A stretch of 64,000 nt of DNA, taken from the NCBI RefSeq assembly GCF_024223415.1, contig NZ_CP100500.1. One strand, written 5' to 3'. Under the pieces are notes generated by a model, which ran no database searches, was not told where the DNA came from, and worked only from the letters and a program-made list of their open reading frames with translations. The stretch's first letter is position 1. Each line of letters starts with the position of its first letter. Both the position numbers and the translations under genes were made by a program. This stretch comes from Escherichia coli (GTDB lineage: Bacteria; Pseudomonadota; Gammaproteobacteria; Enterobacterales; Enterobacteriaceae). Positions 5,065-44,679 of the stretch are shown here, in pieces.

Positions 5065-5094
5065 GAAAGCATACGGGCGATGACAAATGCAAAA

Positions 5095-5185
5095 CTGCCT
5101 GATGCGCTACGCTTATCATGCCTACAAAGATGCACGATCGAGTAGGCGGGATAAGGCGTTTACGCCGCATCCGGCATGGAAAACG
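5095..5185. repeat. REP / palindromic unit cluster
   Basis: gcctgatgcgctacgcttatcatgcctac ... ggataaggcgtttacgccgcatccggc, typical enterobacterial REP consensus. Confidence 0.8.
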
Positions 5186-5247
5186 CGTACTTTGTTATCA
5201 ATCTGGGGCCAGCAAATGCTGGCCTGATTTGTTCTTGAGGGAAGACT

Positions 5248-8319: not shown

Positions 8320-8555
8320 ATATAGCGCACGATTTGTAGCAGGATGCGGCGTTGACCCCGCATCCGGCAATCAACGTCTGATGCGACGCTAGCGCGTCTT
8401 ATCAGACCTACAACAGCTGCCACATGTCGGCTGAGGTGCTCACGCCGCATCCGGCAATCAACGTCTGATGCGACGCTTGCGCGTCTTATCAGACCTACAA
8501 CCGTTGCCACATGTAGGCTGGATAAGGCGTTCACGCCGCATCCGGCAATACAAGT
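8320..8555. repeat. BIME: two tandem ~87-bp REP-containing units plus flanking palindromic units
   Basis: catccggcaatcaacgtctgatgcgacgct[a/t]gcgcgtcttatcagacctacaac... occurs twice, offset about 87 bp (8361 and 8448). Confidence 0.85.
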
Positions 8556-24971: not shown

Positions 24972-25077
<106 letters not shown>

Positions 25078-25607
25078 TGAACTGCACCCCAAATGTTGGA
25101 CATAATCTGACATCTGAAGGTGCAGTTTATGAAACATTCATTTGAAGTAAAACTTGCCGCTGTAAATCATTACCTGGCCGGTCATGCAGGCATCATTTCT
25201 ACGGCAAAACTCTTTCAACTTTCTCACACCAGCCTCTCACACTGGATTAATCTTTTTCTTCTTCACGGTCCTCAGGCACTGGATTGCAGACACAAGCGTA
25301 GCTATTCTCCTGAAGATAAACTTTGCGTGGTTCTTTATGCTCTCGGGCATTCTGAGTCTCTACCCCGGGTAGCTGCCCGGTTTAACATTCCCAGCCACAA
25401 CATGGTTAAAAACTGGATAAAAGGCTACCGCAAATCTGGTAATGAGGCCTTTATCAGGCGCAGGAAGGAGAAAAGCATGACCCGTTCTGATGATACCCAT
25501 GAAAACGAGGCAAACATGACGCCGGAAGAGATGAAGAATGAGCTGCGTTATCTTCGCGCAGAAAATGCATATCTGAAAGCCATGCAGGAGCATCTCCTGG
25601 AAAAAAA

Positions 25608-26600
<993 letters not shown>

Positions 26601-26611
26601 ACCACCAGGCT

Positions 26612-29639: not shown

Positions 29640-29660
29640 TCAGTAAGACGTTTTGTGAGA

Positions 29661-29685
29661 AGGGCCGCGAAAGCGGCCCTTTAGA
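29661..29685 (+). terminator. tktA terminator hairpin
   Basis: gggccgcgaaagcggccc followed by ttt; the same hairpin recurs at 29838-29855. Confidence 0.5.
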
Positions 29686-29689
29686 TTAT

Positions 29690-29835
<146 letters not shown>

Positions 29836-29858
29836 GGGCCGCGAAAGCGGCCCTTTTT

Positions 29859-30767
29859 TTACTTAGTAGAGATAAACGGAACTGTGCTGCCGGGGATCAT
29901 GGTATCGGGCAGTTTACCGTCCCAACGTTCGGCAGTGGTGAGGGCTACAAGTCCGGGATTATCCCGCAGAGCTTCACCGCGCAGGCGGATTGCTTCTGCT
30001 TCAGCCGCACTTTTTAAACGAATAGTTTCAGCCTCTGCCGCGCCTCTTACGCGAATAGTTTCCGCTTCTGCTTTGGCTGCCGCCAGTTTACTGTCTGCTT
30101 CTGCCTGGGCCTGAGTTACCGCTATTTGCGCCTGGATTTTCTCTGTTTCCAGATTTTGCTTACGCGTGGCAATGGCGACTTCTGCTTTCATTCGGTCTTC
30201 AATCGACTTTTCATAAGCGTCAGAAAAATCAATATTTTCAATCTGGACCCCGTCAATTACCACTGGCCCAACAACGGCTTTGCGCATGGCATTTTGCAGA
30301 TCCTGAACCAGTTTTGTACGATCCTGTACAGCGCTGATGGCGGTATATTGGCCGAAAACGTTCTCCAGTTGAGTTGGCAACTGACGGACAATCAGACGAT
30401 CTTTTAATGCTTCAATGGTGTTGTAGGTGGTATAAACCGCGCCTGCTTCTGAAGGTTTAATGTGGAAGCTGACTGATACTGTCATTTGTGCCGGTTGCTG
30501 GTCGCGGCTGTAGGCCTGTAATCCCTGATAGACCACAGCCTGATTACGCGTGGAAATTTTCTCCACGCTTTCCATAAACGGGATCTTAAAACCCAGACCC
30601 GGCTCGGCAACTTTTACGATTTTTCCGTAGCGCAGCAAAATGCCGCGTTCACCTTCATTAACGGTGTAATACGAGAGAAATGGCAGCACAACCACGGCAA
30701 GCACGCCGATGGCGATAGCAAGAGATTTTTGTGGGCGAAATGAGGTTAATGAAACAGGTGCTTTCAT
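29859..30767 (-). CDS. SPFH/band-7 (stomatin/prohibitin-like) membrane protein with a C-terminal Ala/Glu-rich repeat
   Basis: N-terminal TM segment SLAIAIGVLAVVVLPFLSYY, SPFH-like core, then AAAKAEAETIRVRGAAEAETIRLKSAAEAEAIRLRGEA. Confidence 0.65.
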   Translation of the reverse strand: MKAPVSLTSFRPQKSLAIAIGVLAVVVLPFLSYYTVNEGERGILLRYGKIVKVAEPGLGFKIPFMESVEKISTRNQAVVYQGLQAYSRDQQPAQMTVSVSFHIKPSEAGAVYTTYNTIEALKDRLIVRQLPTQLENVFGQYTAISAVQDRTKLVQDLQNAMRKAVVGPVVIDGVQIENIDFSDAYEKSIEDRMKAEVAIATRKQNLETEKIQAQIAVTQAQAEADSKLAAAKAEAETIRVRGAAEAETIRLKSAAEAEAIRLRGEALRDNPGLVALTTAERWDGKLPDTMIPGSTVPFISTK

Positions 30768-42365: not shown

Positions 42366-43445
42366 ATGTCTAAGATTTTTGATTTCGTAAAACCTGGCGT
42401 AATCACTGGTGATGACGTACAGAAAGTTTTCCAGGTAGCAAAAGAAAACAACTTCGCACTGCCAGCAGTAAACTGCGTCGGTACTGACTCCATCAACGCC
42501 GTACTGGAAACCGCTGCTAAAGTTAAAGCGCCGGTTATCGTTCAGTTCTCCAACGGTGGTGCTTCCTTTATCGCTGGTAAAGGCGTGAAATCTGACGTTC
42601 CGCAGGGTGCTGCTATCCTGGGCGCGATCTCTGGTGCGCATCACGTTCACCAGATGGCTGAACATTATGGTGTTCCGGTTATCCTGCACACTGACCACTG
42701 CGCGAAGAAACTGCTGCCGTGGATCGACGGTCTGCTGGACGCGGGTGAAAAACACTTCGCTGCTACCGGCAAGCCGCTGTTCTCTTCTCACATGATCGAC
42801 CTGTCTGAAGAATCTCTGCAAGAGAACATCGAAATCTGCTCTAAATACCTGGAGCGCATGTCCAAAATCGGCATGACTCTGGAAATCGAACTGGGTTGCA
42901 CCGGTGGTGAAGAAGACGGCGTGGACAACAGCCACATGGACGCTTCTGCACTGTACACCCAGCCGGAAGACGTTGATTACGCATACACCGAGCTGAGCAA
43001 AATCAGCCCGCGTTTCACCATCGCAGCGTCCTTCGGTAACGTACACGGTGTTTACAAGCCGGGTAACGTGGTTCTGACTCCGACCATCCTGCGTGATTCT
43101 CAGGAATATGTTTCTAAGAAACACAACCTGCCGCACAACAGCCTGAACTTCGTATTCCACGGTGGTTCCGGTTCTACTGCTCAGGAAATCAAAGACTCCG
43201 TAAGCTACGGCGTAGTGAAAATGAACATCGATACCGATACCCAATGGGCAACCTGGGAAGGCGTTCTGAACTACTACAAAGCGAACGAAGCTTATCTGCA
43301 GGGTCAGCTGGGTAACCCGAAAGGCGAAGATCAGCCGAACAAGAAATACTACGATCCGCGCGTATGGCTGCGTGCCGGTCAGACTTCGATGATCGCTCGT
43401 CTGGAAAAAGCATTCCAGGAACTGAACGCGATCGACGTTCTGTAA
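42366..43445 (+). CDS. fbaA: fructose-bisphosphate aldolase class II
   Basis: MSKIFDFVKPGVITGDDVQKVFQVAKENNFALPAVNCVGTDSINAVLE... Confidence 0.96.
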   Translation: MSKIFDFVKPGVITGDDVQKVFQVAKENNFALPAVNCVGTDSINAVLETAAKVKAPVIVQFSNGGASFIAGKGVKSDVPQGAAILGAISGAHHVHQMAEHYGVPVILHTDHCAKKLLPWIDGLLDAGEKHFAATGKPLFSSHMIDLSEESLQENIEICSKYLERMSKIGMTLEIELGCTGGEEDGVDNSHMDASALYTQPEDVDYAYTELSKISPRFTIAASFGNVHGVYKPGNVVLTPTILRDSQEYVSKKHNLPHNSLNFVFHGGSGSTAQEIKDSVSYGVVKMNIDTDTQWATWEGVLNYYKANEAYLQGQLGNPKGEDQPNKKYYDPRVWLRAGQTSMIARLEKAFQELNAIDVL

Positions 43446-43467
43446 GATATTCCTTTCTGCTTATCTC

Positions 43468-43502
43468 AAGGCCCGCTCTGCGGGTCTTTTTTTTGCCAAA
43501 AG
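43468..43502 (+). terminator. fbaA rho-independent terminator
   Basis: gcccgctctgcgggtc followed by tttttttt; a near-identical copy lies at 43636-43670. Confidence 0.65.
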
Positions 43503-43635
43503 AAAAATTGCCTGATGCGCTACGCTTATCAGGCCTACACGTATCCTGCAATATATTGAATTCGCAGGTTTTTGTAGGCCGGATAAGGCGTTCACGCCGC
43601 ATCCGGCATGACAAAGCGCACATTGATATCTGTCT
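43503..43635. repeat. BIME / REP pair
   Basis: gcctgatgcgctacgcttatcaggcctac ... gtaggccggataaggcgttcacgccgcatccggc. Confidence 0.8.
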
Positions 43636-43803
43636 GAGCCCCGCTCTGCGGGTCTTTTTTTCGCCAAAAGCAAGGTGATACAGATGAGAAATCTGTGATC
43701 TATTTGGCAAAATTATGCTTTATTGTTTACCCTTGTCAGACTGCCCGTCATAAGGCGGCGGAGTGTATTTCTCCATTTTGAGTCAGTTGAAAAGGAATAT
43801 TGA

Positions 43804-44679
<876 letters not shown>

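Follow-up and report, generated by a model that had tools for sequence, protein, structure and literature searches.

The way in which REP sequences and BIMEs spread has been a question for about forty years, and papers from 2012, 2021 and 2026 call the mechanism unknown. The composition of BIME-1 and its size of ~140 bp are established, and its L linker frequently carries an IHF site (PMC3333891); its presence or absence among isolates is stated in the passage of PMC1187871 that cites Bachellier 1997. The sole nuclease linked to REPs so far is the REP-associated tyrosine transposase, whose family inserts without duplicating the target; it is related to the IS200/IS605-type enzymes, whose transposition involves neither terminal inverted repeats nor flanking direct repeats (PMC3333891). 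A review states that REPs "do not display MITE signatures" (PMC3184786), and REP dimers inside palindromes are found in other phyla (PMC3733652). The staphylococcal element IS1272/TnSha1 (IS1182 family) targets terminator-type hairpins with no preference for primary sequence; it cleaves inside the stem and removes a portion of the hairpin, and it produces no target duplication (PMC4923244). In Helicobacter pylori, "insertion with long target duplication" (Nobusato et al. 2000, as cited in PMC1643837) is described there as leaving a long direct repeat that is single-copy when the site is empty.

We studied a BIME-1 located between fbaA and mscS of Escherichia coli and flanked on both sides by copies of one terminator-like hairpin. 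As shown by comparison of alleles, BIME-1 insertion is derived and is accompanied by a direct duplication coinciding with the target palindrome, the ends of the element being constant.

The fbaA-mscS locus and BIME-1 anatomy

The window, i.e., the whole 64,000-nt stretch of E. coli DNA analysed here, carries fbaA at 42366-43445 (positive strand), identified from the ORF list and the RefSeq annotation of matching E. coli records as the gene of a class II fructose-bisphosphate aldolase; its 359-aa product had an exact match in public assemblies and matched the Pfam family F_bP_aldolase. It is the last gene ahead of the repeat and BIME-1 described here. The gene for the small-conductance mechanosensitive channel, mscS, follows at 43804-44679 (positive strand; ORF list and RefSeq annotation), with a RefSeq start usually 15 nt downstream of 43804. 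The first-pass annotation had noticed between them a terminator hairpin repeated over roughly 33 bp, at 43468-43502 and 43636-43670, on both sides of a REP pair. Both strings were present and the repeat extends to 37 nt: the repeat search, the scan for hairpins with a T-run (9-bp stem in copy 1) and folding placed copy 1 at 43469-43505 and copy 2 at 43637-43673, both in the positive strand, 34/37 identical and with a start-to-start spacing of 168 bp. In copy 1 the core AGGCCCGCTCTGCGGGT of the terminator hairpin (43469-43485) is followed by a T8 run and then by GCCAAAAGAAA; from 43486 onward this copy occupies the position of the BIME-1 left end. In copy 2 a T7 run and then CGCCAAAAGCAA follow the hairpin AGCCCCGCTCTGCGGGT, and this copy runs on into the native mscS upstream region. 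A 34-nt consensus of the repeat, with up to three mismatches allowed, matched only at these two places in the 64 kb, where 0.00 matches were expected from 100 shuffles. In the pattern scan both copies scored as a GC-rich hairpin plus T-run downstream of a gene, and the predicted RNA hairpin energies were -14.1 kcal/mol for copy 1 and -9.9 kcal/mol for copy 2. The earlier proposal of two consecutive terminators after fbaA holds for the hairpin and T-run pattern, which is present in both copies; termination itself is predicted.

The element between the hairpins is a BIME-1 in Z1-L-Y orientation (43486-43636, positive strand), assigned by alignment to other BIME-1 sites and to their consensus, and the REP pair seen at first thus resolved into the Z1, L and Y parts of this type. 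By canonical geometry it measures 151 nt, its first 20 nt reading T-run plus GCCAAAAGAAA in place of the consensus GAGACTGCTGACAAACGCAA. The Z1-type palindromic unit (REP), GCCTGATGCGCTACGCTTATCAGGCCTAC, recognized by sequence and inverted-repeat arms, lies at 43510-43538 (positive strand), followed by the L linker at 43539-43573 (positive strand), whose conserved core CTGCAATATATTGAATTCGCA at 43546-43566 has one mismatch to the consensus. The Y-type palindromic unit (REP) at 43574-43607 (negative strand) is an exact consensus with 0 mismatches; it is inverted relative to Z1, and the arms of the two units pair. The right flank motif ATGACAAAGCGCACATTGATATCTGTCTG (43608-43636, 29 nt, positive strand; alignment across BIME-1 sites) corresponds, in inverted form, to the left flank motif of the consensus. 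The fbaA element is extragenic, lies at the 3' end of a transcription unit and is present in one copy in the window. An Rfam search of the locus gave a match to ES036 above the gathering score (43531-43573, negative strand) over the L linker, a sub-threshold match to naRNA4 over the Y unit, and no family over the fbaA hairpins. The ES036 (CssrF) "sRNA" family may model a dispersed repeat rather than one gene.

Upstream of mscS, at 43690-43740, the motifs TGTGATC.ATTTGGCAAAA and TTATTGTTTACCCTT are kept from Escherichia to Citrobacter, Salmonella and Klebsiella; TTGTTTACCCTT, also upstream of mscS, occurs in Entomohabitans as well, and Chimaeribacter has the variant TTAGTTACCCTT. These conserved motifs probably make up the promoter or a regulatory region of mscS.

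A search of the whole window for direct repeats with a minimum of 22 nt and lying within 700 bp yielded only four families: two inside a BIME-2-type array, the fbaA repeat, and a hairpin duplication at tkt (29660-29871). The L motif likewise marked only two elements in the window, the fbaA and tkt BIME-1. At tkt, hairpin copy 1, AAGGGCCGCGAAAGCGGCCCTT (29660-29681, positive strand; direct-repeat search and folding), adjoins a full-length BIME-1 of 152 nt (29682-29833, negative strand, i.e., Y-L-Z on the positive strand; L and Y motif matches), whose orientation is opposite to that of the fbaA element. Hairpin copy 2 (29834-29855, positive strand) has exactly the sequence of copy 1, and the native T-run comes after it. 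The BIME-2-type array is a tandem one (8339-8549) with an 87-nt period, in which three Y-type units alternate with Z2-type units. At 25078-26509 a 1432-bp IS3-family element (transposase match of 300 bits) has inserted into a palindromic unit, within its loop, and shows what looks like a GCCA duplication; such behaviour and size are known for IS1397. The 66-nt direct repeats beside it (24996-25061 and 26545-26610) are neighbouring BIME units and not a target duplication.

When metagenomes were scanned with the L-motif consensus, 120 E. coli-like loci were obtained, corresponding to 21 distinct sites. The full-length BIME-1 has the order left flank motif GAGACTGCTGACAAACGCAAAA, Z1, L linker, Y and right flank motif ATGAACAAAGCGCACTTTGTCAACAATCTG, and its length was 151-152 nt at 11 of the 12 sites with both flank motifs. 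The exception was a 133-nt short-linker variant in the window (5073-5205), a BIME with the BIME-1 left and right flank motifs around a short unrelated linker; the GC hairpin GGGCCAGCAAATGCTGGCC adjoins its right end only, and it has no flanking duplication. The consensus ends are imperfect inverted repeats, GAGACTGCTGACAAA matching the reverse-complement CAGATTGTTGACAAA at 12/15 positions, and the ends GAGACTG...CAATCTG are constant across unrelated loci. The unit reaches 22 and 30 nt past its REPs, and its consensus has a predicted fold of -56 kcal/mol.

The survey of other BIMEs proposed with the first-pass annotation extended the observation beyond fbaA: a site-specific GC hairpin adjoins both BIME-1 ends as a direct repeat of ~17-25 nt at 7/12 sites, a fraction probably inflated because sites were chosen by an exact match to the L-motif consensus, a criterion biased towards young copies. 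Gapped local scores at the seven sites were 9-22, against a mean of 5.2 and a maximum of 9 for unmatched-flank controls, the control maximum tying the weakest of the seven; a first survey had found duplication at 6/10 sites (Mann-Whitney p=3.5e-4). The duplication alignments finish at the left junction and begin 0-2 nt from the right junction. Clear duplication was absent at 5/12 full-length BIME-1 sites, for which decay or another insertion mode is needed as an explanation. The 30 nt adjoining the element had a mean folding energy of -10.8 kcal/mol compared with -4.2 for windows 90-240 nt away (p=5e-7), and a hairpin was present at one or both element ends in 10/12 sites. Judged by loops and T-runs, the flanking copies are direct and not inverted. 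An inverted duplication, as fold-back copying would give, was rejected on these loops and T-runs, and direct scores were equal to or higher than inverted ones at the sites with significant repeats. The possibility that the hairpins form part of BIME-1 was also rejected, because the hairpin sequence differs between loci.

Occupied and empty alleles

The fbaA-mscS spacer of Citrobacter freundii, Salmonella enterica and Klebsiella variicola measures 188-191 nt and contains a single orthologous hairpin but no BIME, and in Entomohabitans and Chimaeribacter a single hairpin lies immediately 3' of fbaA. A contig scan for outgroups with the FbaA C-terminus pattern (...QELNAIDVL*) gave 8 loci; Salmonella, Citrobacter and Klebsiella, whose FbaA ends in ...KELNA(I/V)DVL, fell outside that scan. 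The MscS homologue search with the window protein listed only near-identical E. coli proteins, and the outgroups were reached by a homologue search with the Entomohabitans MscS. These deeper outgroups settle the direction of change: the ancestral fbaA-mscS state is a single hairpin without BIME, and the insertion is derived.

In E. coli the long allele, called by a match over at least 80% of a 501-nt query, was found in 3719 of 5426 complete genomes; in the others (~31% of 5,426) the match span was exactly 168 bp shorter among the matches listed. In the short-allele examples that were sequenced, a single hairpin, matching copy 1 on its left and copy 2 on its right, lies in a spacer of 190 nt, which equals the outgroup spacer length (188-191 nt). 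E. coli strains differ in having one versus two terminator-like signals after the very highly expressed fbaA. The first-pass annotation had read the repeat as a target-site duplication and proposed a comparison with strains or species that lack the BIME, adding that related BIME-less genomes with both hairpin copies would speak against it. In that comparison the E. coli short allele, Citrobacter, Salmonella and Klebsiella all had a single hairpin, and no BIME-less genome with both copies was seen among them, which supports the target-duplication reading as a signature in sequence, with the duplicated core refined to 17 nt (see below).

The occupied allele was also found in E. albertii, E. whittamii, Escherichia sp. 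E1V33 and Escherichia sp. MOD1-EC7003; since it is common to E. albertii and three other non-coli Escherichia lineages, the fbaA insertion is old. The E. albertii element is identical to that of the window at 142/151 positions, compared with 68-84% for BIME-1 copies elsewhere, and this identity therefore points to one old insertion or to one allele exchanged between lineages. At fbaA, E1V33 carries a tandem array of two BIMEs with three hairpins, and the MOD1-EC7003 locus ends inside the second hairpin. In E. whittamii (L010) the distal hairpin is decayed (GAGGCCGCCAGGATAGAGGGG), with the T-run and CGCCAAAAGCAAGG kept, and the element departs less from the BIME-1 consensus than does that of E. 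coli. Within E. coli, the short allele was found in strains named as ST131, ST95 or ST1193 and the long allele in K-12, O157:H7 and strain C. In a weak neighbour-joining tree of the flanks (814 alignment columns) the short alleles were early-branching and paraphyletic. The short allele may be a secondary exact loss that occurred repeatedly, or it could be a retained empty site, with the long allele spread by homologous recombination; both histories yield the same sequence.

Pairs of occupied and empty alleles, with a single hairpin in the empty one, were found at five loci: fbaA, tkt, metE-ysgA, yqjF-yqjG and mog-satP. Between tkt and the prohibitin gene, occupied and empty alleles differ by 174 bp, i.e., 152 + 22, and the empty allele, found in E. 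coli strains N25 and MEW, reads GTGAG|hairpin|TTTTT. The size difference is 171 at metE-ysgA, 177 (152 + 25) at yqjF-yqjG and 173 at mog-satP, and at each of these loci the empty allele has one hairpin. With coverage of at least 80% required, the occupied allele matched 89 E. coli genomes at yqjF-yqjG, 467 at mog-satP and none at metE-ysgA, where it is present in a relative that is ~93% identical. At tkt, metE-ysgA, yqjF-yqjG and mog-satP the duplication comprises the entire palindrome together with its A/T extension. Together with the survey, these pairs back the hint in the first-pass annotation that REP/BIME elements may colonise terminator hairpins. The two copies at metE-ysgA (L018:1194-1834) differ by a compensatory T-A to C-G change (GGGTGGT..ACCACCC vs GGGTGGC..GCCACCC), which suggests that the stem was constrained in at least one copy after duplication. 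At chbG-katE, K-12-like strains have hairpin-BIME-1-hairpin (L021:13845-14485) and other E. coli (L155, strain PM22) have an unrelated hairpin, GGTAAGGTCAC...GTGACCTTATC, i.e., a replacement; this locus was left uncounted as an empty site because the other allele bears that unrelated hairpin.

Arrays of the form hairpin-element-hairpin-element-hairpin were found at three loci: fbaA (E1V33), tkt (strain HSP60, a tandem x2 array) and yqjF-yqjG (N96). Within each array both elements have the same orientation and site-specific variants in common, and the arrays therefore fit unequal exchange or slippage better than a second insertion.

Origin of the duplicated hairpins

We consider it likely that, taken as a whole, the locus arose by insertion of a BIME-1 at the fbaA terminator hairpin with duplication of the hairpin, followed by conversion, exact loss and tandem gain. 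On the Escherichia lineage, the element would have inserted at the hairpin of the fbaA intrinsic terminator and doubled the whole hairpin into hairpin-element-hairpin, a step that the comparison of alleles shows at the level of sequence. The first 20 nt of the element, beside copy 1, would later have been replaced by the T-run plus CGCCAAAAGCAA found after copy 2, giving the 37-nt repeat, a T-run of its own for copy 1 and two terminator-like signals flanking the BIME. A near-palindrome between direct repeats is a classical setting for exact deletion and for tandem gain. Judging from the allele structures, slippage or unequal exchange between the repeats around the palindromic element would allow the unit to be lost exactly or gained in tandem, hence the single-hairpin alleles and the tandem arrays.

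The numbers at fbaA bear on the length of the repeat. The 168 of the unit is the sum of 17 and 151, and the distance of each hairpin from the L motif is the canonical one. Element positions 1-20, where the consensus is GAGACTGCTGACAAACGCAA, read CTTTTTTTTGCCAAAAGAAA, nearly equal to the 20 nt that follow copy 2, CTTTTTTTCGCCAAAAGCAA; in strain RM9131 the match is exact. The native stretch after the T-run has outgroup counterparts, e.g., TTGCCAA in Entomohabitans. On the simplest reading, the core duplication at fbaA would be the 17-nt hairpin, later extended to a 37-nt repeat by conversion of a 20-nt patch, and this conversion would have given the proximal hairpin back its T-run. A 37-nt duplication combined with a 20-nt truncation of the element would fit the sequence equally; it is less simple because two lengths must coincide. 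A full-length BIME-1 at L053:768-920 has an overlap of the same kind, its left target copy overlapping the first 7-8 nt of the element (AAGCACCTTGTGAAAAGAGCTTC vs AATCACCTTGTAAAAGGTGCTTC).

For the insertion mechanism we go by the footprint seen on comparing alleles. Under insertion with hairpin duplication, the two strand breaks would most likely fall at the two feet of a hairpin or cruciform. Once the palindrome is extruded these feet would be adjacent in space, and the stagger, hence the duplication, would equal the length of the palindrome, 17-25 nt. That BIME-1 spreads in this manner, by structure-directed integration at both feet of an extruded terminator hairpin or cruciform, a route not described before, is a tentative proposal, which we hold with less confidence than the history of the locus. 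If true, a target duplication comprising a whole palindrome (17-25 nt) would explain the location of BIME-1 at the 3' ends of transcription units, and BIME-1 would move as a 152-bp unit with terminal inverted repeats and not by "peel and paste", the single-strand, duplication-free route that REPs are assumed to take.

Staggered cleavage could be replaced by template switching (copy choice) at a stalled hairpin: the nascent strand would copy the hairpin, jump to a donor BIME-1, return upstream and copy the hairpin again. Hairpins and palindromes do stall replication, BIMEs have no known classical transposase, and the overlap of the repeat with the element left end at fbaA and L053:768 could reflect microhomology. 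However, random microhomology jumps predict ragged ends and variable lengths, whereas the element has identical ends and a length of 151-152 at unrelated loci. Because these ends are invariant and without homology to the hairpin-adjacent sequence of the target flanks, template switching is the weaker account, and we regard it as unlikely. We give still less credence to a BIME that landed beside the terminator without duplication and was later partly duplicated in tandem, or underwent unequal exchange, to leave 1.2 copies. The tandem arrays at three loci indicate that unequal exchange or slippage of the unit occurs, but unequal exchange requires a second hairpin copy beforehand, and the breakpoints would have to fall exactly at the element end and the hairpin edge independently at seven or more loci with different hairpins; the alignments stop at the left junction and begin 0-2 nt from the right one. 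A GC-rich stem and a T-run are common to terminator hairpins, but the idea that two independent terminators became alike by chance or convergence, the BIME merely lying between them, is effectively refuted and hardly deserves weight, given the 34/37 identity that includes the loop and 12 nt past the T-run against an expectation of 0.00, the one hairpin in BIME-less relatives, and the same layout with other hairpins at other loci.

Insertion at the hairpin with its duplication predicts that the proximal hairpin is normally parted from its T-run, putting the BIME inside the 3'UTR. At the duplicated sites other than fbaA the proximal hairpin has lost its T-run, and transcripts are therefore predicted to read through the BIME to the distal hairpin. 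The junction signature, i.e., a fixed 152-bp unit flanked at each end by the complete terminator hairpin of that site, which is single in empty alleles, would be a testable insertion footprint. It offers a mechanistic reason for the long-noted placement of BIMEs at gene 3' ends, and would account for BIME-1 loci as hot spots of exact presence/absence and copy-number polymorphism.

Comparison with known elements

The fbaA element corresponds to the BIME-1/RIP/RIB described by Gilson, Bachellier, Hofnung; Oppenheim, Rudd; and Boccard, Prentki: it has the same Y and Z1 units inverted around a long L linker, a size of ~140-150 bp, an extragenic position at transcription-unit 3' ends, and is present or absent among isolates (PMC3333891, PMC1187871). 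In the literature examined, the primary papers of 1991-1999 excepted, we found no description of a site-specific hairpin duplication at BIME-1 ends, and this signature may be new unless it is already in Bachellier 1997, Gilson 1991 or Boccard & Prentki 1993.

BIME-1 resembles MITEs in several ways: it is small and polymorphic for presence/absence, has terminal inverted repeats and a strong predicted fold, and is flanked by direct repeats of target DNA. The terminal inverted repeats are present in the BIME-1 consensus, the left one being overwritten at fbaA, and a flanking duplication that is single-copy in empty sites was found at five loci, with variable length. MITE target duplications are short, of fixed length and set by the transposase, whereas that of BIME-1 is 17-25 nt and coincides with the whole target palindrome. 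To our knowledge, the BIME-1 ends have no convincing match among the ends of common E. coli IS elements. With REPINs the element shares two inverted REPs and a spacer as the proposed mobile unit, and a hairpin-recognising biology. In contrast to REPINs and to IS200/IS605 "peel and paste", BIME-1 extends 22 and 30 nt beyond its REPs and is flanked by a duplication. For a REPIN, cleavage by the cognate transposase is expected beside the REP foot (GTAG/CT), and insertion of the IS200/IS605 type is expected to leave no flanking direct repeats; here repeats of 17-25 nt were found at 7/12 sites.

At fbaA the long repeat is single-copy in relatives without the insert, as in the "insertion with long target duplication". 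As far as the description of that H. pylori class cited above goes, its inserts are gene-sized and no tie to hairpins is described, whereas BIME-1 is a 152-bp repeat with a palindrome-sized duplication at many loci. Precise excision of Tn10 and Tn5 occurs by slippage between target duplications that flank inverted repeats. By analogy, BIME-1 has direct repeats around a palindromic insert, and its loss would restore the length of the empty site (190 nt at fbaA); it differs from Tn10/Tn5 in its longer repeats (17-37 nt) and in showing tandem gain too. Unlike IS1272, BIME-1 leaves a complete hairpin on each side.
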